A DNA stretch of 64,000 nucleotides from Escherichia phage vB-Eco-KMB43. Below the pieces are notes generated by a model that searched no databases, was not told the origin of the DNA, and was given only the letters and a program-made list of their open reading frames with translations. Positions 19,455 to 42,754 of the stretch are shown here, piece by piece; position 1 is the stretch's first letter; each line of letters opens with the position of its first letter. The stretch lies in the sequence record OR525698.1; one strand, 5' to 3'. Position numbers and translations under genes: made by a program.

Positions 19455-19490
19455 TGTATTATAGGGGATCACCGATCCCCCTGTCAACAA
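19455..19490 (-). promoter_or_regulatory. early promoter cassette with palindromic spacer
   Basis: Reverse complement TTGACA-GGGGGATCGGTGATCCCC-TATAAT; spacer is a perfect GGGGATC/GATCCCC palindrome. Confidence 0.65.
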
Positions 19491-20050: not shown

Positions 20051-20348
20051 TATCTTTTAAGAACTCATCCCATGAATGGCGGATATTGTTCTTAATTCTC
20101 CAGATAAGCGCAGGGATTGAACGCTCTCCCATCTGGAAGTATGGATCATATGATCCGTATGCCCAATATGCTACTACAATTCCACAATCAGCGCAATAGT
20201 ATTCTATTTCACTTGCTGGCGACCAAAGTCCATCAATATGATCGGTGATCTTGCTTTCGATGTTATGGCTATGACAATCAGGGCAACGGATGCAATGACC
20301 TTGTTTATCGTAATTTGACGTTAGCGAATACTTAAACAATCTCATCAT
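20016..20348 (-). CDS. small zinc-ribbon-like protein (110 aa)
   Basis: CxxC...CxxC arrangement (CIRCPDC, CADCG); start overlaps the upstream stop. Confidence 0.5.
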   Translation of the reverse strand: MMRLFKYSLTSNYDKQGHCIRCPDCHSHNIESKITDHIDGLWSPASEIEYYCADCGIVVAYWAYGSYDPYFQMGERSIPALIWRIKNNIRHSWDEFLKDIDLRDDPFRRL

Positions 20349-21061
20349 AGATCCTTATTTGCTTCAAATACTGCCTTTGCGAATCCTCGCGGGGTAAGTG
20401 ACCTGATAGTCTTTGTTTTCGTTCCTTTCCCGCCTAGCTTAGAATGCTGTTTACTGTACCCTTTATTAATCTGCAAAGGTTTCTTTTCTGGCATTATAAA
20501 GCCTTGTCCGGTCCATAAGCAAGTCTTTTTCGGGTACATATCACGGGCGGCGATATACTCAGGAAAAGTAGGATGTTTATCATCTTCCGGCAAATAACCG
20601 CCATATTCCCACGGATGGAACATATAATCAGGCTTACGCCACATGCTAGAGATAACGCTTACAGGATTCTCTATCATGTAGGGAACTCCTAGCCATTCAC
20701 CCAAATAAGCGGTTATTTTAGCTGCCCGTACATCATGAACTTGAATCAATGGTCCTTGCTCTCGTTTCTTTCGTTCAAAGTGTGCAGCGCCACTAACAGC
20801 TAAATTGGTGCACGGTGGGAATGCAAAGATAATATCCGGTTTCCCCCATTCAAGGTCCATTGCTCTTTCCAGCCAGTTCAAATCAATCCAGGTGTTTACA
20901 TAGGTAATGTTTGGATGTTCAAATCTGGTATTATACTTTTTGTATGTACCGTGGTCGGCGTCATCCGCATTAAAGCAGACTACCTTATGACCTGCTTTAG
21001 CCCATTCTAGCCCCATTATCCCCGATCCGTCAAAGTTACAGAATATTAATTTTTGTTTCAT
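20345..21061 (-). CDS. C5-cytosine methyltransferase-like protein (divergent, 238 aa)
   Basis: FCNFDGSG (motif I-like), IIFAFPPCTNLAVSG (motif IV-like Pro-Cys), MIENP (ENV-like); no clear motif VIII or X, so family assignment is tentative. Confidence 0.45.
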   Translation of the reverse strand: MKQKLIFCNFDGSGIMGLEWAKAGHKVVCFNADDADHGTYKKYNTRFEHPNITYVNTWIDLNWLERAMDLEWGKPDIIFAFPPCTNLAVSGAAHFERKKREQGPLIQVHDVRAAKITAYLGEWLGVPYMIENPVSVISSMWRKPDYMFHPWEYGGYLPEDDKHPTFPEYIAARDMYPKKTCLWTGQGFIMPEKKPLQINKGYSKQHSKLGGKGTKTKTIRSLTPRGFAKAVFEANKDL

Positions 21062-30439: not shown

Positions 30440-30760
30440 TTATTTATAAATTTCGACGATCTGCGCTGGAGTCAGCCCGTCTACATTAATCAGACTATCA
30501 AGCCCAAAACTACGGAAACCTTCAACTGCAATTTCATATACTGGCAAAGATGTTTCTGATTCTTTACGCGGTTTTTCAACATTCGGAACTAACCACTTTT
30601 CGTATGTTTCAAACGGCATCAGTGCCGGATCTCGCGTGGCGATCATCTCACGGACAGTACCATCTTTCTTAGTAAACTGCAAAGAGTGAGTACCGACCGA
30701 AAACATTTTCTTTAGTGCTTCACGAAGTGCGATATTATCAACTTGTTCAGTCATTATCAA
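30440..30760 (-). CDS. hypothetical protein (106 aa), 31.1-like by position
   Basis: Intact ORF between gene 31 and cd. Confidence 0.5.
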   Translation of the reverse strand: MIMTEQVDNIALREALKKMFSVGTHSLQFTKKDGTVREMIATRDPALMPFETYEKWLVPNVEKPRKESETSLPVYEIAVEGFRSFGLDSLINVDGLTPAQIVEIYK

Positions 30761-31253
30761 TACCCTTCAAATCAGTCAATAATGCTTTTGGAATACGCGT
30801 GATTGTAATATCTGCATTATTCAGAATATCAGCCCAATCACGCCCACCATTTCGATCATATGTGTCGCAATAGTATAGATGTTTAATACCACTGTTTGCA
30901 ATTGCTTTAGCGCAATCTGGACACGGTGAAGCAGTACACCACATACTAGCGCCTTCAATCGATACACCGCTACGGGCAGCAAACAAAATAGCATTTAATT
31001 CAGCATGGATCTCGTTTTTCTGTGACCATGCACTATGCTCTGGTCGTTTTTCTGGGATCATTTTGCCGTCATCATCCAGCCAACCGTTTTTATGTGCATG
31101 ACAGCTACAATTTACTTGCCCTGCTGGAGTTCCGTTAAATCCAGTAGAAATGATTCGCCCGTCTTTTTCGATCAGTGCGCCTACCTTCCACGAAACGCAT
31201 TTAGAGTTCTTTGCGATTAGATAGGCGATCTGCATGTAAGTTTGTGACAACAT
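30747..31253 (-). CDS. cd: dCMP deaminase
   Basis: 168 aa; SWKVGALIEKDGRIISTGFNGTPAG, HAELNAILFAARSG and SPCPDCAKAIANSGIK zinc-binding motifs match T4 Cd. Confidence 0.9.
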   Translation of the reverse strand: MLSQTYMQIAYLIAKNSKCVSWKVGALIEKDGRIISTGFNGTPAGQVNCSCHAHKNGWLDDDGKMIPEKRPEHSAWSQKNEIHAELNAILFAARSGVSIEGASMWCTASPCPDCAKAIANSGIKHLYYCDTYDRNGGRDWADILNNADITITRIPKALLTDLKGIDND

Positions 31254-31274
31254 AATATAATCCTCACATAGTAA

Positions 31275-32377: not shown

Positions 32378-32808
32378 CGTTCCTCATTAAGTTCTTTTCG
32401 ATAATAACACATGATCAACTTACTTTCAAGTGTATATCTCTTAATATCCGCAAGCCAGACTCTGAATTTTTGGGAGTCCTCCCACGACATAGAAACTCTA
32501 GGTTTACCGTCTATTGTATCCACTTTCAGGTCAATGTCAACTTTTTCTATTGGTGCTGGTAGTGGAGGATGTAATTTCGGTTCCTGTGAATAATGGTCCA
32601 TTGTACACGAAGAAAGCGCAAATACAATAGGCAAAGCGAAGACATGGATTATGGAGGTCTGAAAATTCTTATGTGCTTTCTTAAACATCCAGTGTATCAC
32701 GAAAATTGAAAACACCATCAGGATAATAATGCTTGCACCTATCCACAGATAATCAACCAGATTAAAATTGCTTATCTGCTCTTGTGTAGGCAATATTTCT
32801 ATGCTCAT
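32356..32808 (-). CDS. hypothetical membrane-associated protein (150 aa)
   Basis: N-terminal hydrophobic segment WIGASIIILMVFSIFVIHWMF and a second segment IIHVFALPIVFALSSC. Confidence 0.5.
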   Translation of the reverse strand: MSIEILPTQEQISNFNLVDYLWIGASIIILMVFSIFVIHWMFKKAHKNFQTSIIHVFALPIVFALSSCTMDHYSQEPKLHPPLPAPIEKVDIDLKVDTIDGKPRVSMSWEDSQKFRVWLADIKRYTLESKLIMCYYRKELNEERCKPKEK

Positions 32809-33179
32809 TTAGTAGCCTCCTTTAATTCTTCGGTAAACTCCTTAAATGAATCATTAAGCTGTTTCTCTACCAACTTTGGTTTTTGTGCTACTACATAGCC
32901 TCGTGTAGCGTCTTTCATTGCTTTGTTTTGTTCTTCTGCAAACTTAGTTCTTATTCCGTACATCTCCTTTTGTAGTGAGTCTACGACCTTCATCTTTTCA
33001 TCTGTCTTTTTCTTATACTCTGTAAATTCCTGATTCAGTCGATCTACCTCCTTTTTATTTTCCCACCACATATTACCACCTACCCCTAGCAACACAGAGA
33101 TGATAACAATGTATATCAGCTTTGACATATTACCCCCAACGACAAAAGGCGGGGAACTAGCCCCGCTTATTATTACCAA
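32805..33179 (-). CDS. hypothetical protein with N-terminal TM helix and coiled-coil region
   Basis: KLIYIVIISVLLGVGGNMWW followed by a charged helical region. Confidence 0.5.
   Translation of the reverse strand: MVIISGASSPPFVVGGNMSKLIYIVIISVLLGVGGNMWWENKKEVDRLNQEFTEYKKKTDEKMKVVDSLQKEMYGIRTKFAEEQNKAMKDATRGYVVAQKPKLVEKQLNDSFKEFTEELKEATK
33149..33166 (-). terminator. candidate terminator downstream of rnlA
   Basis: GCGGGG-AACTAG-CCCCGC hairpin with flanking A/T runs. Confidence 0.55.
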
Positions 33180-34342
33180 TCAATCTTATCAGCCGGAATA
33201 AGTTTCTTATAATTCCGTAGATAGTAAGTTTTCATTGAATCCAGAATACGGTCATAATCAAGACCATCAAATGCAATCATCAGACACATGAAAATATATG
33301 CTTGTGCATCACCATGTTTACGTGATTCGATAGTCGCATTTGATGCATATGTCTTTCTGTCTTCTCCCGCGTGTGCGTTATAAAATTCTGTTGCTGTCGT
33401 GAAGGCATTGCGAAGAATAGACCTGAATGCTTCCTCGAATAGCTCGATTCGTTCCAGTGCTTCCGGTTCGCCTTCATATGCAGCACGCAAATCATCGGTT
33501 TCGCTTTCTACGACATAGTAGATCAGGTTATTAGGAAACATCGATGTGTTTTTAATGTTATGCACACCAATATACCATTCACTCTTCACTTTGAACATTT
33601 GACCGTCTTTAGTGCGTGCAACAATTCCTTCGATACCTTCTGCGGTCCGAACTTCATCAAGAATATTGCTAAAACGCGCTGAATCAACCTGTAACGCATT
33701 TACCAGATGAGGACGTAGGATTGCGTCAGAAAATAGCATTTGATGCGGTACGTACTCTCCTGTGACGTTATGGCGTACATTCAGAAGTGTTAGCGACGGT
33801 TCAGAATATTCTACAACAATTCGGTTGCTGGGCGCTGTATATTCAAAGTTGAAAGTATAATCAGACCCAATATCAGCAATCTTAGCGCGTAGATCCGCAT
33901 ACTTCTCTGAATACAGAAGACCGTTTGCTCTCTCTGCCTGGCTTGAGTACAAGGCCGCTTTAGACTTCAACTGAACATAGCCGTTATCAATGTATGTGCT
34001 TACTAGACTACCGTCCATTTTGTCCATGACCATTTCCACATCTTCCGGCTTAAAGCGAGCGCGATCATTCTCACCCAAATTAAAAAACTTCTCCATAGGA
34101 CGAGATGCGATGCGGACCGGACGACCTTTATCGTCAATTTCAAACATGATCCCGCGACACTCTAACGCATCTGGTTTATTCCACATTTCCGGTTTGCTCA
34201 AGTACAGATAACTAAAAATGCGCATACGGGTTTGCATCGCCGTAATTTCATCTTTGTAATAGAACGTATCAGATCCGTCACATAGTGCCATCAGATTTTT
34301 GAACAATGCTAAAACTTTTTTGTTGTTTTCTTTTGTTGACAT
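33173..34342 (-). CDS. rnlA: RNA ligase 1
   Basis: LFKNLMALC..., IFSYLYLSKPEMWNKPDALECRGIMFE, RIASRPMEKFFNLGEN, DGSLVSTY, EGIVARTKDGQMFKVKSEWY align with T4 Rnl1; track start overlaps denA by 65 nt, so the true start may be an internal Met. Confidence 0.9.
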   Translation of the reverse strand: MSTKENNKKVLALFKNLMALCDGSDTFYYKDEITAMQTRMRIFSYLYLSKPEMWNKPDALECRGIMFEIDDKGRPVRIASRPMEKFFNLGENDRARFKPEDVEMVMDKMDGSLVSTYIDNGYVQLKSKAALYSSQAERANGLLYSEKYADLRAKIADIGSDYTFNFEYTAPSNRIVVEYSEPSLTLLNVRHNVTGEYVPHQMLFSDAILRPHLVNALQVDSARFSNILDEVRTAEGIEGIVARTKDGQMFKVKSEWYIGVHNIKNTSMFPNNLIYYVVESETDDLRAAYEGEPEALERIELFEEAFRSILRNAFTTATEFYNAHAGEDRKTYASNATIESRKHGDAQAYIFMCLMIAFDGLDYDRILDSMKTYYLRNYKKLIPADKIDW

Positions 34343-34739
34343 AATTTGTGTTCCATTCTGGTTTAAATTTGGTGATCAAAACAGGTTCTTCGATATCGGC
34401 AGTGCTTATAATATCCTTACCCGTTGGATTCTCGATGTACAACTCAAAGCACTGTCGGTAATAGAATGTTACTGTCTTACCTTCCTCTAGCGCCTTATGA
34501 ATATTCTTACTCTTGCGAGTATCCGCTGTTGGTGTTTGTCTGTTAATGCTAGTCCGGTAATAATTGATCCGCTTTCTGAGATTGACAGTCTGACCAATAT
34601 ATACCAGTTCATCATCAACAACAATAGCGTAAAGAACATTTAAACGGTTCTTCTGAGGCGGCAGAATCACATCACCATCTTTACACTCTAAACATGAATA
34701 TTTAACGAATCCATAGTTTTCTATTAGCTCATTAATCAT
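34278..34739 (-). CDS. denA: endonuclease II (GIY-YIG family)
   Basis: NRLNVLYAIVVDDELVYIGQTVNLRKRINYYRTSINRQ matches T4 DenA NKYNVIYAIAINDELVYIGKTKNLRKRINYYRTAINRK. Confidence 0.9.
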   Translation of the reverse strand: MINELIENYGFVKYSCLECKDGDVILPPQKNRLNVLYAIVVDDELVYIGQTVNLRKRINYYRTSINRQTPTADTRKSKNIHKALEEGKTVTFYYRQCFELYIENPTGKDIISTADIEEPVLITKFKPEWNTNYVNKRKQQKSFSIVQKSDGTM

Positions 34740-34764
34740 TATCCTTTCCTCACGTCACAACAAA

Positions 34765-36082: not shown

Positions 36083-36559
36083 TTAATCATGACCGTGATT
36101 TGCAATATCCGCTCGCGTCTTATCTTTGTGATTTCCTACGTCAAAGACACGATAACCATTTTCACGCAAAACTTTAATCACTTCTGGGTTATCCTCAAAG
36201 ACTCCGACAACTTCATCTTTATCAAAGGATTTAATTACCTCTAATTTGATGTGATAGTCTTTACGGGAATCGGTACGGCCTCTCATAAAGATTTTATCAA
36301 AACACACCCCGTTAGAAATTAACCAATCAATTGTTTCCATGTAAGCATGTGAACTTCGTCCTGTGAGGATGTAAATCAAATGCCCGTTGTCGGAAAGAGC
36401 ATTAATAACACGAATTACATCGTAAATGGGGGAATCTCCCCCACATGCTTTGTTATATTCGATCCATGACTCGACTTTATCAAGATTTTCGGTTGGCATC
36501 TTTGCTAGTCGATGCGTTGGATCTGTGATCGTAAAATCTAAATCGACAAAATATATCAT
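36083..36559 (-). CDS. HAD-superfamily phosphatase
   Basis: FVDLDFTIT (DxDxT motif I), LTGR (motif II), GVFEDNP (motif IV). Confidence 0.65.
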   Translation of the reverse strand: MIYFVDLDFTITDPTHRLAKMPTENLDKVESWIEYNKACGGDSPIYDVIRVINALSDNGHLIYILTGRSSHAYMETIDWLISNGVCFDKIFMRGRTDSRKDYHIKLEVIKSFDKDEVVGVFEDNPEVIKVLRENGYRVFDVGNHKDKTRADIANHGHD

Positions 36560-37719
36560 AGATATTTCCCGAATCGGTTGTAGTCATCGTCTGTTAAATC
36601 GGTATTAACCTGAGATACCAGATACATAATCTCTACTTCTTGCGCTGCATTCTGTACTTCGTCAGAGTTTAACCACTTACGCATCCACGGTAAAGGATGA
36701 CGACGAACACTAAACGGGCTTTTCAGTCCGACAGCACGCATACGGGAATCTGCCAGGTATTCTACATAAGTTTTCAGAATTTCCGGTGACAATCCAGGAA
36801 TTGACCCCATTGCGAATAGGTGGTCTACCCATTCTTTTTCTTGCTCGACAACATCCAGAAAGATTTTCGTTGCTTCGCCTTCAAGTTCTTCCGCAATCTG
36901 TTTCCACTCATCACCATCAGCCCCCGTTTGCCATTGACGAATAATGTATTGTGTGCCTTTTAAGTGAAGTTGTTCATCACGCGCAATAAATTTCATGATC
37001 TTCGCGTTACCTTCCAGTAAACCACGTTCGGCAAAGCTGAAAGTACATGCAAAGGACACATAAAAACGGATTGCCTCCAGTGCATTAACGCAATGCATAC
37101 ACAGATAGAGTGATTCCATCAGATTGCGTTTAGTTTCTTCCACGTACGAAATGCTATCAGAATATGCATCAAGGTCAAATTCATTTTCAGAAGAACGACT
37201 AAAACTTTCTTTAGCGTCCTCGTATTCACGGATTTTCACCAGAACATCATCATAATATTTCCCGATAGATTCCGCTCGCTTCATGATAGCAGGGTTATCG
37301 ATGATCTGGTCGAACTCACTAGCCGGATCAATGAAACAGTTACGCATAATGTGTGTATAGCTTCGGCTATGAATCGTTTCGCTGAATGTCCATGTTTGCA
37401 ACCATGTATCGAGAGTTGGATCAGATACAATTGGACCAAATGCTGCGGACGGTGCGCGACCTTGAATAGAATCAAGTAATGTCTGATACTTCAAGTTTTC
37501 GGTAAAGAAACGCTTTTCAACGTCACCCATATTAAGATATTGAATGCGGTCGGTTGCAAGTGAAATCTCTTCTGGACGCCAGAAAAATGACAATTGCTTT
37601 TCGATCAGTTCTTCAAATACTTGATGACGCTGAATATCATAGCGAGCGATACCCAACCCACTACCCAGAAACATCGGTTCGTTCATAATATCAACATGTT
37701 CGCGGTTAAATACGCTCAT
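36556..37719 (-). CDS. nrdB: ribonucleotide reductase small subunit
   Basis: 387 aa; di-iron/tyrosyl radical region ...CVNALEAIRFYVSFACTFSFAERGLLEGNAKIMKFIARDEQLHL...; continuous ORF with no intron. Confidence 0.9.
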   Translation of the reverse strand: MSVFNREHVDIMNEPMFLGSGLGIARYDIQRHQVFEELIEKQLSFFWRPEEISLATDRIQYLNMGDVEKRFFTENLKYQTLLDSIQGRAPSAAFGPIVSDPTLDTWLQTWTFSETIHSRSYTHIMRNCFIDPASEFDQIIDNPAIMKRAESIGKYYDDVLVKIREYEDAKESFSRSSENEFDLDAYSDSISYVEETKRNLMESLYLCMHCVNALEAIRFYVSFACTFSFAERGLLEGNAKIMKFIARDEQLHLKGTQYIIRQWQTGADGDEWKQIAEELEGEATKIFLDVVEQEKEWVDHLFAMGSIPGLSPEILKTYVEYLADSRMRAVGLKSPFSVRRHPLPWMRKWLNSDEVQNAAQEVEIMYLVSQVNTDLTDDDYNRFGKYL

Positions 37720-37734
37720 TAATTCACCTCACTA

Positions 37735-37902
37735 TCACTTTTTAACACAAAAGAACTTAGTATTTCTGTTTATTTCGCTATCCTGCTGCAATTCCTGCAC
37801 AGCTTCAAAACAATTTTGATATGATGAAAACTCTACGCTGGTAACAGTTCCTTTATTATATACGCCTACGCTAACGGAAAGCAATAACCATAATGTAGCC
37901 AT
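37735..37902 (-). CDS. small hydrophobic protein, paralogue 1 (55 aa)
   Basis: MATLWLLLSVSVGVYNKGTVTSVEFSSYQNCFEAVQEL...; TAATG overlap with the upstream paralogue. Confidence 0.45.
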   Translation of the reverse strand: MATLWLLLSVSVGVYNKGTVTSVEFSSYQNCFEAVQELQQDSEINRNTKFFCVKK

Positions 37903-38075
37903 TAGTTCACCTTTTGTTTTTCAACGCAATATAGATTCATAAAGCGTTTATTGTCTTCGCGGATAATCTCGCGAGCTTTAACGCAATCCTGCTTTGTTGC
38001 AAACTCAATGCTTGACATATTTCCGTAATTATACATTGAATTGCTTATTGCAATCAATAACCATACAGTAGCCAT
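37902..38075 (-). CDS. small hydrophobic protein, paralogue 2 (57 aa)
   Basis: MATVWLLIAISNSMYNYGNMSSIEFATKQDCVKAREII... Confidence 0.45.
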   Translation of the reverse strand: MATVWLLIAISNSMYNYGNMSSIEFATKQDCVKAREIIREDNKRFMNLYCVEKQKVN

Positions 38076-38242
38076 TATCCGACAACCTCAAAACATTTAT
38101 CATCAGGAAGAATCGCCCATTCTACACCGTATTCATCCTCAACGTAGTAGCAAGTCCCATCATGTCGAGCATCATATTCATCACCAACAACAAAGCTATC
38201 AGCTAGTTCAAAATCTACAGCAACACATTTTAATTTGGTCAT
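38075..38242 (-). CDS. small hypothetical protein (55 aa)
   Basis: Start taken at ATG 38240-38242 with GTGAGGA RBS (track ORF extends upstream in frame to 38302). Confidence 0.45.
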   Translation of the reverse strand: MTKLKCVAVDFELADSFVVGDEYDARHDGTCYYVEDEYGVEWAILPDDKCFEVVG

Positions 38243-38271: not shown

Positions 38272-38305
38272 GTATTATAGCGGGGATTTCTCCCCGCGTC
38301 AACAG
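38272..38305 (-). promoter_or_regulatory. early promoter cassette, copy flanking the methyltransferase gene (downstream side)
   Basis: ATTATAGCGGGGATTTCTCCCCGCGTCAACAG, identical over 32 nt to the copy at 39169-39202. Confidence 0.65.
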
Positions 38306-39150
38306 CTATTTGACAATCCATCGCAAGCATCAATGTAAGCACCTACAAAACTTTCTATAAAAAGTGCTCCGACTTGAGGAACTATCGCATTGCCATAACC
38401 GCGCAATCGTCCCATTGTTGAGGATACCCCATCAGCCAACAAGGGAATCGTGGGTTCAACAATTCGTTTTTTCCCGTCTCTGCATAGATACTCTGTTCCA
38501 CTGTCCCAAAACCGTAATACATCTTCACTTGTTCTGATAAATTTCCCGGCGCTAGTGATTTCCTCCCCGTTGCAAGTCTCGCTTCCATTCTCCGTTGCAT
38601 TGCTTCCGGCGATCTTGCTGATATATTCGTTACAGTAGGTGTTTGCCAACTCGTTAATAGCCCCGAAGAAAAGTCTGTCCCGCTTGTGCGGCGCACCGAC
38701 GATATCACATGATAATACCGCAGCCCCGACACTGTAACCTTCTCTTTCCAATTCCTCGTGAAGATCATCCAACCACCCCGTTTCGATAGCTTTTGCAACC
38801 TGTTCCCCAAAGAGCATTGGAGGTTTGCACGCTGACACGAGTTTAAGAAATGTCGGTGCAAGGTGTCTTTCGTCGAACTTTCCTTTTTGCTTTCCGGCTC
38901 TTGAAAATGGTTGACATGGTGGCGATCCGGTCCATAGCCTTGTTGTTTCTGGTACTCCAGCGAGTTGCAATGCTCTTGACCACCCCCCAATCCCCGCGAA
39001 GAAGTGACATTGTGTAAATCCTTCCAGATCTCTAGGGGTGACTTCTGTAATTGATCTTTCATCGACATACCCATAAGGAATTAATTTGTTTGCTATAAGT
39101 TCACGTAACCAGTTAGCCGCGCCTTTATCCCACTCATTGTAATAATTCAT
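38299..39150 (-). CDS. DNA (cytosine-5)-methyltransferase
   Basis: 283 aa; FFAGIGGWS (motif I), GSPPCQPFS (motif IV, catalytic Pro-Cys), GEQV (ENV-like), KRDRLFF (motif VIII), GNAIVPQV (motif X) in canonical order. Confidence 0.8.
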   Translation of the reverse strand: MNYYNEWDKGAANWLRELIANKLIPYGYVDERSITEVTPRDLEGFTQCHFFAGIGGWSRALQLAGVPETTRLWTGSPPCQPFSRAGKQKGKFDERHLAPTFLKLVSACKPPMLFGEQVAKAIETGWLDDLHEELEREGYSVGAAVLSCDIVGAPHKRDRLFFGAINELANTYCNEYISKIAGSNATENGSETCNGEEITSAGKFIRTSEDVLRFWDSGTEYLCRDGKKRIVEPTIPLLADGVSSTMGRLRGYGNAIVPQVGALFIESFVGAYIDACDGLSNSC

Positions 39151-39168
39151 TCTTACAATTCACCTCAC

Positions 39169-39202
39169 ATTATTATAGCGGGGATTTCTCCCCGCGTCAA
39201 CA
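39169..39202 (-). promoter_or_regulatory. early promoter cassette, copy flanking the methyltransferase gene (upstream side)
   Basis: Reverse complement TTGACG-CGGGGAGAAATCCCCGC-TATAAT. Confidence 0.65.
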
Positions 39203-39208
39203 GTTATT

Positions 39209-41452
39209 TTACAGCTTACAGGATGAACACTCGCTAGCGTCTTCCGTACCATCTGCACCGTCGCGAACGTTCGCATAATACAGGGTTTTCAGACCGTAAT
39301 ATTGAGCAAACAACATATCATCTAACACATCAGCAATATCGACTTTACCAGTCTTATAAGTGCTTGGATCGTATGATGTATTGGAACTAATCGCCTGATC
39401 CACAAACTTCTGCATGATCGCTGCCAGTGTCAGATAAGGCTTGTTACCTTTCTTGATCAGTGTCCAAAGCAGGTCAATAACATCAGCATTATTCTCTACG
39501 TTCGGAATAACCTGATTAAATTGCCCTTCTTTCGATCCTTTAACCGATACAATCCCGCGAGGCGGTTCAATACCATTTGTGCTGTTAGACACCTGAGAAG
39601 ATGACTCACAAGGCATCAGCGCCGAAAGCGTACTGTTACGAATGCCATATTTTTTCAGGTCTTCGCGCAGTTCTTCCCAATCCATCTCATACACCGGATC
39701 AACCAGTTCATCTACTGTCTTTTTGTACCAGTCGATAGGAAGTTCACCGCGACCGTAGCGTGTTTCGTGCATCAGTTCGCAAGCACCCTTCTCTTTTGCG
39801 AGTTGCACACTAGCCTTAATCAGAGCATATTGCAAGCGTTCAAACGTTTTATGCGTAAACTCGTTAGCGTCTTCATATGTGAAGAAATTATCTGCTAGAT
39901 ATGATGCAAAGTTAGTAACACCAACGCCCAGAGAGCGACGTTTTTTGGCTGTCAGAGCTTGTTCTACAGGATAATCCTGATAATCTAACAGGTTGTCAAG
40001 TGCACGCACCATAACCATAGCAATGCGTTCTACTTCTTTCATGTTTTCGATATCGAAATTACCTAAAACATATGCTGCCAAAGTGCATAGGCTGATCTCT
40101 GAATCATCACGACCCATCGGTTTAGTAGGCAGTGCAATTTCACAACACAGGTTAGATTGTTTAATCGGTGCTACATTACGAATAAACGCCCCGTGATTGT
40201 TCATGTTGTCTGTGAACGTTGGGTAGATTCGACCAGTGTTAAAACGTTCAATTGCCACCGCTAAAAACAGGTCTTCGGCTTTAACACGAGTTTTACGAAC
40301 ACTCGGATCTTTTTCCAGTTTTTCGTAAAGCTGGCGGAAACCTTCCTCATCTCGGAAGTACAGATCCCACAACAAGCCACCTGCAACATCTGGACTAAAC
40401 AGAGTAATGTAATCCCGTTTAAGGAATCGCTCTACCATCAGGTTATTAATCTGTACGCCGTAGTCAAGATGGCGAATGCGGTTATCTTCCACGCCCTTAT
40501 TGTTCTTTAACACAATCAGACTTTCAAACTCTAAATGCCACATTGGGTAATAGAGTGTCGCTGCCCCGCCACGAATACCGCCTTGTGAGCATGACTTAAC
40601 GGCAGTCTGAAAATGTTTCCAGAATGGGATAACGCCAGTATGACGAACTTCACCATGCCCGATCTTAGATCCTTCCGCGCGAATCATACCAGCATTGATA
40701 CCGATACCAGCACGCTTGCTAATATACTTGATGATTGCATTTGCTGTTTCGTTGATGCCCTGCAATGAATCATCAGATTCGATCACCACACACGAACTAA
40801 ATTGGCGTGTTGGGGTACGCACACCTGCCATAATCGGAGTAGGCAGAGAGATTTGCTTATTCGCAACAGCATTATAAAAATCAATCACATGTTCAAGTCG
40901 ATTTTCTGTCTCTTCTTGATGCAAGCACATACCGATCAGCATATACGCAAATTGCGGTGTTTCGATGATTTTCTTAGTGCTGCGATCCTGAACAAGATAT
41001 TTCTCTTTTAACTGCATCGCACCAGCATAGGTCATTTTAAAATCAAGTTTATGGTCGATGAATTTCTCCAGATATTCCACTTCTTCACGGGAATATTTTT
41101 GCAGAATTTCGCGATCATATTTTCCGGTTGCAATATTACGCTCAATATGGCTATAAAAATCAATAGGTTGGAATTGACCGTATACTGATTTACGAAGCGC
41201 GAACATTGCAAGGTTACTTGCTACATATTGATAATCAGGTGTTTCTACAGTAATGTTATCTGCGGCGACCTTAATCAATACTTTCTGGATATCATTGGTA
41301 GACATACCTTCTGTCAGAAGTGGTTCAACCATATCAAACAATTCATATGGATCAACGTTATGACCTTCGGCTGCCGCTTCCAGAATTTTCATTACTTTTT
41401 CTTTTTCAAACGGAACAGTCAGACCGGAAGACTTAACAACATTTTTAATCAT
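39209..41452 (-). CDS. nrdA: ribonucleotide reductase large subunit
   Basis: 747 aa; N-terminal ATP-cone, catalytic-site motifs (NLCCEIALP, CESSSQ) and C-terminal redox cysteines (CSSCKL). Confidence 0.9.
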   Translation of the reverse strand: MIKNVVKSSGLTVPFEKEKVMKILEAAAEGHNVDPYELFDMVEPLLTEGMSTNDIQKVLIKVAADNITVETPDYQYVASNLAMFALRKSVYGQFQPIDFYSHIERNIATGKYDREILQKYSREEVEYLEKFIDHKLDFKMTYAGAMQLKEKYLVQDRSTKKIIETPQFAYMLIGMCLHQEETENRLEHVIDFYNAVANKQISLPTPIMAGVRTPTRQFSSCVVIESDDSLQGINETANAIIKYISKRAGIGINAGMIRAEGSKIGHGEVRHTGVIPFWKHFQTAVKSCSQGGIRGGAATLYYPMWHLEFESLIVLKNNKGVEDNRIRHLDYGVQINNLMVERFLKRDYITLFSPDVAGGLLWDLYFRDEEGFRQLYEKLEKDPSVRKTRVKAEDLFLAVAIERFNTGRIYPTFTDNMNNHGAFIRNVAPIKQSNLCCEIALPTKPMGRDDSEISLCTLAAYVLGNFDIENMKEVERIAMVMVRALDNLLDYQDYPVEQALTAKKRRSLGVGVTNFASYLADNFFTYEDANEFTHKTFERLQYALIKASVQLAKEKGACELMHETRYGRGELPIDWYKKTVDELVDPVYEMDWEELREDLKKYGIRNSTLSALMPCESSSQVSNSTNGIEPPRGIVSVKGSKEGQFNQVIPNVENNADVIDLLWTLIKKGNKPYLTLAAIMQKFVDQAISSNTSYDPSTYKTGKVDIADVLDDMLFAQYYGLKTLYYANVRDGADGTEDASECSSCKL

Positions 41453-41516: not shown

Positions 41517-41521
41517 TTTGT

Positions 41522-42754
41522 TTATACTGCCATTTGAGCGGTGATCGCTGGATGGCTTTGATAGTTGTGAATTTTAAAATCTTTCGGAGTCTTTGTCAAT
41601 ACCTCATCTAAAGATTTAAATTCCGGCAACTCAATTGTTGGTTTATCAAACGGAACACGGCTTAACTGTTCCATAACTTGATCAAAATGGTTTTTGTAAA
41701 TGTGAGTATCTCCACCAGAGAAAATCAGTTCTCCTACCTCAAGATCACACATTTTCGCTATGATGTGAGTTAACAGCGCATAGCTGGCGACGTTAAAGGG
41801 CAAGCCCAAAAAGCTGTCTACGCTTCGCTGAAACCACATACAAGACAGTTTACCTTCATTGACGTAGAATTGTACGAACGGATGACATACACCCAATACA
41901 GCATTATGTGTTCCTTGTACGTTCCATGAGTCAATGATGATACGTCGATCCGTTGGATTGTTTTTAATTTGTTCAATCACGTTTTGTAACTGGTCTTCCC
42001 AAATCTTCGGGCGATAGACATATTCTTCATCGTCTTTAGTGCTTGATGTGTCTACGTCCATACTAACAAACATCGTGGTATCCGGTGCTATAATATCCCC
42101 ACCCAGATAATCACTATCAAGCAGATAACCGAAATAACCATCATCTACCCATTCCTGGAATCCCCACAAGCAATATGCATCATTAACAAAATTAGATTGA
42201 GTCTTCCAGTGGTCTGCTACTAAGAATTGATTATATTCAGAATCAAACTCTTCATAACGCATACCACGCCAGATAGCACATAAACGGTCTTCTGTGTCAT
42301 TAGTTGGCGTAAAGTCTTCTACCCACGGGTGCTTAAATGTATGTGTATATTTGCTCTTAACGCGCTTAATTTTGATTTCACCATGTGGATGAATCGGTTT
42401 GCGTCGCCACGCCATACCATACATATTTCCGACATTATAACCATTGAATCGCAATGGATTCTTTTCTTTCATATCAAGACAGTTGCCGCGCCAAATATCA
42501 AAGGCTTCCTCGTCAAACTTGCCGCGTGTAATTTCCTGTAAGCGACGGCGGTCAAGTGATCCCTCCATAAACCATAGCAATTCGCCAATTACAGAGGCTG
42601 TAGCCATCTTTTTAGTGGTCAGTAATGGGAAACCCTTGCTTAAATCAATTCGCATCTCTGCGCCGAATTTAGAGAGCGTACCTACCCCCGTGCGGTCTTC
42701 ACGAGGACAGCCATTATCAAGAACATCACGCAATAGTTTCAAATATTCTTTCAT
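41522..42754 (-). CDS. td: thymidylate synthase with a large internal insertion
   Basis: 410 aa; N-terminal DRTGVGT and FPLLTTKK, catalytic CHPFVQFYV, DSFLGLPFNVASYALL and TS-like C-terminus ...AQMAV; extra segment between the YGMAWR and DRRIIIDSWN blocks; continuous ORF. Confidence 0.8.
   Translation of the reverse strand: MKEYLKLLRDVLDNGCPREDRTGVGTLSKFGAEMRIDLSKGFPLLTTKKMATASVIGELLWFMEGSLDRRRLQEITRGKFDEEAFDIWRGNCLDMKEKNPLRFNGYNVGNMYGMAWRRKPIHPHGEIKIKRVKSKYTHTFKHPWVEDFTPTNDTEDRLCAIWRGMRYEEFDSEYNQFLVADHWKTQSNFVNDAYCLWGFQEWVDDGYFGYLLDSDYLGGDIIAPDTTMFVSMDVDTSSTKDDEEYVYRPKIWEDQLQNVIEQIKNNPTDRRIIIDSWNVQGTHNAVLGVCHPFVQFYVNEGKLSCMWFQRSVDSFLGLPFNVASYALLTHIIAKMCDLEVGELIFSGGDTHIYKNHFDQVMEQLSRVPFDKPTIELPEFKSLDEVLTKTPKDFKIHNYQSHPAITAQMAV

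Follow-up and report, generated by a model that had tools for sequence, protein, structure and literature searches.

The nrdA-nrdB interval of Escherichia phage vB-Eco-KMB43 (sequence record OR525698.1) raises the question of why a gene for a C5-cytosine DNA methyltransferase (C5-MTase) stands there between two identical promoter repeats, how it came to that place, and which cytosine it could act on in a phage that also encodes denA, cd and td. The stretch of 64,000 nucleotides that was analyzed, called the window below, was assigned to Krischvirus (RB49-like phages). In a first-pass annotation made from the letters of this DNA, the methylase had been recognized and three roles had been suggested for it, namely self-protection against restriction, a modification intermediate and an inactive binding protein. 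The first of these was by far the best supported by the present results, and the other two less so. It was considered quite probable that the locus is a single-gene cassette of the promoter-early stem-loop (PeSL) type, which carries an orphan, early-expressed C5-MTase with an anti-restriction role in Krischvirus and is gained and lost through its PeSLs.

Identity and motif order of the methylase

The open reading frame (ORF) of 283 amino acids was present as first described, and it lies on the minus strand (Table 1). The Pfam search that had been advised as a check returned PF00145 with 69.6 bits and E=4e-19, above the gathering cut-off of 22, and only residues 72-170 were aligned. The phrog_363 family 'DNA methyltransferase' was matched over the full length (E=1.3e-71), and the NCBIfam model TIGR00675 (dcm) reached 49.7 bits, which was under its curated cut-off of 100.65. 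Among solved structures the best sequence match was M.HhaI, and the Dnmt2 structure 6fdf was also matched (E=3e-5). An AlphaFold2 model based on 56 homologues had predicted local distance difference test (pLDDT) values of 70-90 over residues 1-165 and 255-281. The top Foldseek matches of this model were M.HhaI and M.HaeIII, with E values of about 1e-7, a probability of 1.0 and template modelling (TM) scores of 0.35-0.40, these scores being low because the target-recognition domain (TRD) was poorly modelled and the motif order was non-sequential. Further matches were a C5-carboxymethyltransferase (8yf3, rank 11), DNMT1 and Dnmt2. The GenBank annotation of the gene was already "DNA methyltransferase". 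Based on these profiles and the modelled fold, the ORF product was shown to belong to the C5-MTase superfamily, and the initial identification was borne out.

All five motifs named at the first reading were found, as FFAGIGGW at residues 50-57 (motif I), PPCQ at 77-80 (motif IV), GEQV at 115-118 (motif VI), RDRLFF at 157-162 (motif VIII) and GNAIVPQV at 253-260 (motif X). Conservation was checked over the 56 homologues, at about 60% identity, and the motifs were invariant or nearly so. The invariant residues included F50, F51, G53 and G56 of motif I, P77, C79 and Q80 of motif IV, E116 of motif VI, R157 and R159 of motif VIII, and G253, N254 and P258 of motif X, while Y4, N5, E6, D8 and D30 were also invariant or nearly so. 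The residues that bind S-adenosylmethionine (AdoMet) were intact, namely E6 and W7 of motif II, D30, FAGIGG of motif I and GNAIVP of motif X, as were the catalytic residues Cys79 of PPCQ, Glu116 of EQV, Arg157 and Arg159. Motif VI was EQV instead of ENV, with Q invariant in the family. Since the catalytic and AdoMet residues are invariant across the homologues, the enzyme looks catalytically competent.

In the HMMER alignment, HhaI residues 37-46 (YSNEWDKYAQ, motif II) fell on residues 3-12 of the query and HhaI residues 3-33 (motif I) on residues 36-66, and the TIGR00675 alignment opened at profile position 25 with query residue 3. The protein was de-permuted in silico by placing residues 38-66 ahead of residues 1-37. 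After this rearrangement, the PF00145 score increased from 69.6 to 92.5 bits and the covered part of the profile from 64-166 to 5-166, and TIGR00675, now aligned from profile position 4, scored 70 bits instead of 49.7, still under the cut-off. The order of secondary structure elements in the AlphaFold2 model (strand 2-4, helix 9-20, strand 28-30, strand 47-50, helix 56-63, strand 72-75) agreed with II-III lying ahead of I. When the family hidden Markov model was compared with E. coli Dcm, motif IV alone was significant, Dcm being too diverged, and fragments of 44, 40 and 55 amino acids with motifs II, I and X gave no Pfam matches, being too short. As judged from the alignments and the model, the motif order is II-III-I-IV-VI-VIII-TRD-X and is a family-wide trait, different from the canonical I-II-III-IV...X. 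The canonical order that had been claimed thus holds for the five listed motifs and fails for the whole protein, in which II-III are N-terminal to I. The arrangement amounts to an exchange of blocks inside the protein and differs from a circular permutation.

The family comprised about 8000 database matches and was found in 242 phage records. Outside Krischvirus, the closest relatives were Seunavirus SalP219 and its relatives (69% identity), Kagunavirus K1G and K1H (about 60%) and the rV5-like phage CarlMeissner (55%).

The flanking repeats and the empty site in relatives

The 32-nt string ATTATAGCGGGGATTTCTCCCCGCGTCAACAG was present in exactly two copies in the 64-kb window, as a direct repeat with a period of 898 bp. 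No further copies within 3 mismatches were found in the window, and none of 100 dinucleotide-preserving shuffles contained such a repeat. The identical 32-nt repeat on both sides of the gene had therefore been read correctly, with coordinates that were off by 1-3 nt from those in Table 1. When 2 mismatches were allowed, its length rose to about 42-43 nt (38274-38315 for one copy, 39171-39213 for the other), and the stop-codon region of the gene upstream of each copy was then part of it. Read on the minus strand, which is the coding one, the 32-nt repeat is CTG-TTGACG-CGGGGAGAAATCCCCGC-TATAAT and consists of a sigma-70 -35 box, a spacer of 17 nt and a perfect -10 box. Both copies matched 11 of the 12 consensus positions in the promoter scan, and the view of the repeats as promoter cassettes was upheld. 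Nearly all of the spacer was made up of a 7-bp G/C stem and a 4-nt loop (GCGGGGA-GAAA-TCCCCGC), with a folding free energy of about -15 to -16 kcal/mol and z = -2.7 compared with shuffles.

These features are those of the PeSL cassettes described in coliphages RB49 and phi1 by Arbiol et al. 2010 (PMC2839356). The published anatomy consists of the upstream gene's stop codon within AT-rich sequence, an early promoter with consensus boxes, a stem-loop of the form GGGG...CCCC, a Shine-Dalgarno (SD) sequence and a start codon, and the stem-loop most often sits in the space separating the -35 box from the -10 box (PMC2839356). At our locus the consensus boxes, the stable stem-loop of a G-tract and a C-tract between them and the bracketing of a gene that is present in some phages and absent in others were all found. 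The upstream copy is intergenic, with the layout nrdA ...CTGTAAAATAACTG-TTGACG...TATAAT-AATGTGAGGTGAATTGTAAGAATG; it begins 5 nt past the nrdA stop codon and is followed by the SD sequence and the ATG of the methylase gene. The outer flank of the downstream copy shows continuity with the empty site of RB49, where a single PeSL stands, and the stop codon of the methylase (38299-38301) lies inside the -35 box of this copy. The window was scanned for the subclass with a stem-loop between -35 and -10 and a hairpin of -10 kcal/mol or stronger, and 8 such PeSLs were found, all on the minus strand, starting at 19458, 21592, 21836, 25458, 26620, 27015, 38274 and 39172. The last two were the sole identical pair among them.

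Promoter, terminator and mini-circle activity was demonstrated for other PeSLs of RB49 and phi1 (PMC2839356). By analogy with those published experiments, the stem-loop of the upstream copy would act as an attenuator of read-through from nrdA, and the same copy would be the early promoter of the methylase gene. The downstream copy would in turn be the promoter of the RB49p233 homologue. Separately, a 3-nt insertion was seen in the upstream PeSL, immediately past its -10 box (window 39174-39176), where the window reads TATAATAATGTGAGG and four other carriers read TATAATGTGAGG. With the 2-nt gap of the other carriers, the transcript from this PeSL may be without a complete SD sequence, and the 3 added nt may make translation from the PeSL promoter more efficient.

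The interval was compared in related phages, as had been recommended. The identity of the region was 99.2% with Krischvirus LF73P4, 98.2% with Delraymugoa and Aragogtheria, and 95-98.5% with RB49, Phi1 and many other Krischviruses. Only 3 of the 82 matching phage records (LF73P4, Delraymugoa and Aragogtheria) covered the whole interval. The 37 records listed without the methylase matched in two pieces with a span of 901-904 bp, the length of the query less 898 bp, consistent with an empty site. RB49, Phi1 and about 79 other records, nearly all of the relatives, were read as having a single cassette without the gene. In the alignment, a lone PeSL separated nrdA from the RB49p233 homologue in RB49, with no gene beside it, while the window and Delraymugoa had PeSL, ORF and PeSL. 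The insertion or deletion was exactly one repeat period, as expected from homologous recombination between PeSLs, and such recombination between flanking PeSLs was reported to insert and delete single genes and to yield mini-circles (PMC2839356; Comeau et al. 2014, PMC4122927). The arrangement had been taken at the outset for that of a module gained by recombination between cassettes, and each of these observations agreed with it. Two metagenome contigs, ENA ERZ28655925 and Logan SRR31730439, encoded the identical protein with the same flanks. In T4, the nrdA-nrdB interval contains no methylase, as had been stated, but it holds the homing-endonuclease gene mobE and nrdB.1.

The module was 99.0-99.6% identical among carriers, and its flanks were 97.8-99.0% identical and mosaic; the left flank of the window was closest (99.4%) to that of RB49, which lacks the methylase. 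These identities, from small numbers, weakly favoured recent lateral spread within the genus over ancient vertical inheritance. The ORF of Delraymugoa ends at a TAA belonging to the extended repeat, and two substitutions in the window abolish this codon, so that the ORF is four codons longer and ends with the TGA in the -35 box. The identity of the protein was 94.7-98.6% among Krischvirus carriers compared with 69% for the next best homologue, and because of this drop the direct donor was judged to be absent from the databases searched. The compositional sign of recent import was weak: the GC content of the gene was raised (46% compared with 40.5% for the window), while its GC at third codon positions (GC3, 0.41) was similar to that of nrdA and nrdB (0.38-0.39).

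The same data bear on the best surviving alternative, in which the gene was ancestral to Krischvirus and was repeatedly lost, so that the PeSL pair is the state before deletion and RB49, Phi1, TB34 and others have already deleted the gene. PeSL-PeSL recombination accounts for deletion equally well, one carrier decays by frameshift, and the GC3 value carries no strong signal of import. Against this history stand the presence of the gene in only 3 of the 82 matching records and its raised overall GC content. Moreover, the module of the carriers diverges by 0.4-1.0% compared with 1-2.2% for flanks that are mosaic with phages lacking the methylase, which is a better fit to a young, laterally spread module, and the nearest other homologues, 69% identical, are in unrelated Seunavirus phages in a non-PeSL context. 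An ancestral gene with repeated loss was therefore considered unlikely.

Ordinary cytosine and the role of the methylase

At first reading, the place of a C5-MTase beside denA, cd and td had seemed unclear, as these enzymes are tied in T-even phages to the replacement of cytosine. That the window encodes nrdB, nrdA, td, cd and denA was borne out by the ORF list and by the genes annotated in a phage of 98% identity. In T4, alc lies between pseT.3 and rnlA, and it blocks transcription of cytosine DNA. At the syntenic position alc was absent, and the equivalent annotation runs from the spanins to rnlA (window about 32800-34350, compared with T4 135132-137464), which is consistent with a phage whose own DNA holds cytosine. 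RB49 is without hydroxymethylase and beta-glucosyltransferase, and HpaII and NheI, which are methyl-sensitive, cut its DNA (PMC4041780). It has homologues of DenA and dCTPase, yet shows generalised transduction of canonical DNA (PMC8056088). The DNA of TB34 has no detectable modification, and the genus is without homologues of 5-hydroxymethyl-dCMP synthase and glucosyltransferase (PMC13390438). Thus the T-even pathway of cytosine replacement was not recognised here, judging from the annotation for alc and from the literature for the synthase, the glucosyltransferase and the unmodified DNA. The supposed tension dissolves, since Krischviruses keep denA, cd and td while lacking the hydroxymethylase, the glucosyltransferases and alc, and the presence of these three genes does not imply cytosine replacement in Krischvirus. 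The C5-MTase has a substrate because Krischvirus DNA contains ordinary cytosine, and such DNA is exposed to host restriction.

According to the ORF list and the annotation, no nuclease gene adjoins the methylase, whose neighbours are nrdA and ORFs of 55-57 amino acids. The methylase is for this reason an orphan, and a type II restriction-modification system was ruled out. As suggested by sequence comparison, it would most likely serve in orphan anti-restriction, being expressed early and methylating a short motif for self-protection. Host sigma-70 RNA polymerase would start at the upstream PeSL directly after infection, and the enzyme would add methyl groups to cytosine C5 within a short target motif, for whose recognition the poorly modelled residues 165-250 would be responsible. 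The substrate would be replicating phage DNA with ordinary cytosine, and its methylation would shield the phage from cognate host restriction enzymes at the cost of sensitivity to methyl-dependent type IV enzymes such as McrBC. A trade-off of this kind would explain the rarity of the gene and the frameshifted carrier. Homologous recombination between the direct PeSL copies would delete the gene and leave one PeSL, as in RB49, and the same recombination could set free a circle of 898 bp, capable of reinsertion at a different PeSL. In this way the module would be gained, lost and passed between co-infecting Krischviruses.

Several observations weigh against a PeSL-borne, early-expressed anti-restriction methylase. 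The target-recognition region had pLDDT values below 50 over residues 170-252 of the AlphaFold2 model, and no experimentally determined target motif for the phrog_363 family was found in papers on Vequintavirinae, BASEL and Certrevirus. In Drexlerviridae, according to the BASEL study, the MTase genes of phages were not tied in any simple way to resistance against restriction. The terminator scan did not call the stem-loop an intrinsic terminator, there being no T-run after the hairpin. The leader from the upstream PeSL was very short, with 5 nt from the -10 box to the SD sequence in the window and 2 nt in other carriers; translation from the PeSL transcript may be inefficient and the gene may partly rely on read-through from nrdA. 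The methylase gene of LF73P4 had a 2-nt deletion (window 38604-38605) with a frameshift after about residue 181 and loss of motif X, and the gene appears dispensable because a carrier has this truncating deletion, which is either real decay or an assembly error in an unannotated record. Finally, gain and loss of the module cannot be polarised with certainty.

Another view is that the enzyme does not make plain 5-methylcytosine for anti-restriction and instead transfers another group (e.g. carboxymethyl from carboxy-S-adenosylmethionine) or performs the first step of a hypermodification. Krischvirus SAP and TB34 are 99.96% identical, and SAP is reported to be fully modified with 5-hydroxymethylcytosine (hmC) and alpha-glucosyl-hmC while TB34 has none; no known pathway genes were found (PMC13390438). 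This unexplained modification, possibly the product of such a hypermodification, and the appearance of the DNA C5-carboxymethyltransferase 8yf3 among the fold matches speak for this view. It was nevertheless judged very improbable, as the 8yf3 match was weaker than those of ordinary methylases, the one gene of the cassette has no adjoining partner of the CmoA-like, TET/JBP or glycosyltransferase type, and close homologues were present in only three Krischvirus records. The methylase was ruled out as the source of the glucosyl-hmC of SAP, since SAP and its unmodified twin TB34 are both without the gene at this site. It is hardly credible that the protein is inactive, acts on RNA like Dnmt2 or mainly modifies host DNA to alter host expression. 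For such a view speak the Dnmt2 tRNA methylases among the sequence and fold matches, the unusual motif VI and motif order, and the frameshift tolerated by one carrier. Against it, DNA methylases were the best matches, the invariance of catalytic and AdoMet residues across a phage family of thousands argues for kept activity, and the invariant Q of EQV is a family trait, not decay.

A second, very divergent C5-MTase-like gene, encoding 238 amino acids, was noticed elsewhere in the window, in a PeSL-rich hyperplastic region (Table 1). The motifs FDGSG, FPPCT and IENPV were recognised by eye. The protein matched phrog_757 'DNA methyltransferase' (E=8e-91) and phrog_363 weakly (E=0.002), without Pfam or PDB sequence matches, and its comparison with the phrog_363-type family alignment by hhalign gave no meaningful match. 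It is too short for a normal target-recognition domain. Phage records with the gene numbered 1520 overall, and in 56 of them the identity was at least 90%; SalP219, one of the 1520, has the phrog_363 enzyme as well. A second gene of this kind deserves notice given that the DNA of RB49 and TB34 was reported as unmodified.

The features of the locus are collected in Table 1. The two small ORFs on the nrdB side of the RB49p233 homologue, homologous to RB49p231 and RB49p232, are adjacent tandem paralogues; both start with MAT(L/V)WLL and have a hydrophobic N-terminus and conserved Cys positions. The Pfam scan of the RB49p233 homologue and of these ORFs beside the methylase gave no match. The thymidylate synthase of 410 amino acids is intronless and exceeds the usual ThyA/Td by about 125 amino acids, owing to an insertion at about residues 120-245; td of RB49 is equally long. 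In T4, td is split by a group I intron carrying I-TevI.

Table 1. Positions of the methylase cassette and of other genes in the window
Feature	Position	Strand	Remarks
C5-cytosine DNA methyltransferase gene, phrog_363 family	38299..39150	-	283 aa; ATG start, TGA stop; catalytic Cys79
Shine-Dalgarno GAGGTG	39161..39166	-	10 nt 5' of the methylase ATG (39150); direct sequence reading
Upstream PeSL copy	39172..39203	-	-35 TTGACG 39195-39200; stem-loop GCGGGGAGAAATCCCCGC 39178-39195; -10 TATAAT 39172-39177
Downstream PeSL copy	38274..38305	-	-35 38297-38302 (holds the methylase TGA); stem-loop 38280-38297; -10 38274-38279
nrdA	39209..41452	-	upstream neighbour; ORF list and annotation of 98%-identical phage; stop-codon region (TGTAAAATAACTG) within the extended repeat
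nrdB	36556-37719		ORF list and annotation of 98%-identical phage
RB49p233 homologue	38075..38242	-	55 aa; annotated in RB49 and Delraymugoa; next gene after the single PeSL in phages without the methylase
RB49p231 and RB49p232 homologues	37735-37902 and 37902-38075	-	55 and 57 aa
td	41522-42754	-	window ORF; 41518-42750 in the Delraymugoa annotation
cd	about 30750-31256		position from the Delraymugoa annotation
denA	about 34281-34742		position from the Delraymugoa annotation
C5-MTase-like gene, phrog_757	20345-21061	-	238 aa

Comparison with known systems and significance

The cassette resembles those of RB49 and phi1 in genus and in anatomy, with one small gene between two PeSLs and a single PeSL at the empty site. 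It differs in its cargo, a DNA methylase where the published cargos are mostly ORFans, and in its site between nrdA and nrdB, two conserved genes of nucleotide metabolism, where the published cassettes are in large hyperplastic regions. The methylase PeSL pair is absent from the main text of the PeSL papers (PMC2839356, PMC4122927) and is known here from sequence. The T4 gene mobE is a different optional mobile gene in the same interval, so that nrdA-nrdB is a recurrent landing site. Unlike mobE, which spreads by endonuclease-driven homing, our cassette encodes no nuclease or recombinase and would depend on homologous recombination between short repeats.

Compared with M.HhaI and M.HaeIII (PF00145), the methylase has the same fold, PCQ cysteine, motif VI glutamate, motif VIII arginines, FxGxG and GNxxxP, and differs from them in II-III lying before I, a distance of about 22 residues from I to IV, EQV and a variable region of about 80 amino acids. 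Unlike canonical bacterial C5-MTases, it has no cognate restriction enzyme and is below the TIGR00675 cut-off. The phrog_363 orphans of SalP219, K1G/K1H and CarlMeissner are alike in their full-length match, motif order and N-terminus MNYYNEWD, but their genes are in tightly packed operons without PeSL flanks; in SalP219 no PeSL-like intergenic gaps are annotated around the gene. M.BssHII, M.Alw26I, M.Esp3I and M2.BsaI share a non-canonical motif order in otherwise standard C5-MTases (PMC5944983). These enzymes are circularly permuted with IX-X before I-VIII, unlike the methylase here, in which II-III are before I and IV-X are in place. All natural permuted C5-MTases known to Slaska-Kiss et al. 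2018 place IX-X before I-VIII, and their REBASE screen for motif X before motif I could not detect the II-III/I pattern (PMC5944983). In our limited literature search no published description of the II-III/I swap was found and only IX-X-first circular permutants turned up, an absence that is no proof of novelty.

A bolder proposal is put forward only tentatively, as one that may well prove wrong. In it, phrog_363 would be a natural, non-circular permutation class, with beta2-alphaB-beta3 (II-III) encoded before beta1-alphaA (I), outside the catalogued IX-X-first permutants, and the family member here would be a self-contained 898-bp unit of promoter and gene able to circularise, in effect a mobile anti-restriction cassette for T4-like phages.

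PeSL cassettes and orphan C5-MTases of phages are both already known kinds, and the shuffling mechanism is published. What is new, modestly, is a PeSL-borne gene with a function that can be recognised, at a site that the PeSL papers do not discuss, together with siblings that have and lack the gene and the motif order of the family. The unusual motif order may be of interest to structural biologists of methyltransferases. Natural isogenic partners with and without the gene exist, e.g. Delraymugoa and GoldenSnicker, which have adjacent accession numbers and differ at the site. The same siblings are suited to measuring the rate of PeSL-PeSL excision and the transfer of genes by mini-circles between co-infecting phages. 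They would also provide a convenient system for the fitness trade-off of an accessory methylase, between protection from type II enzymes and exposure to enzymes of the McrBC type, in a T4-like phage with unmodified cytosine.

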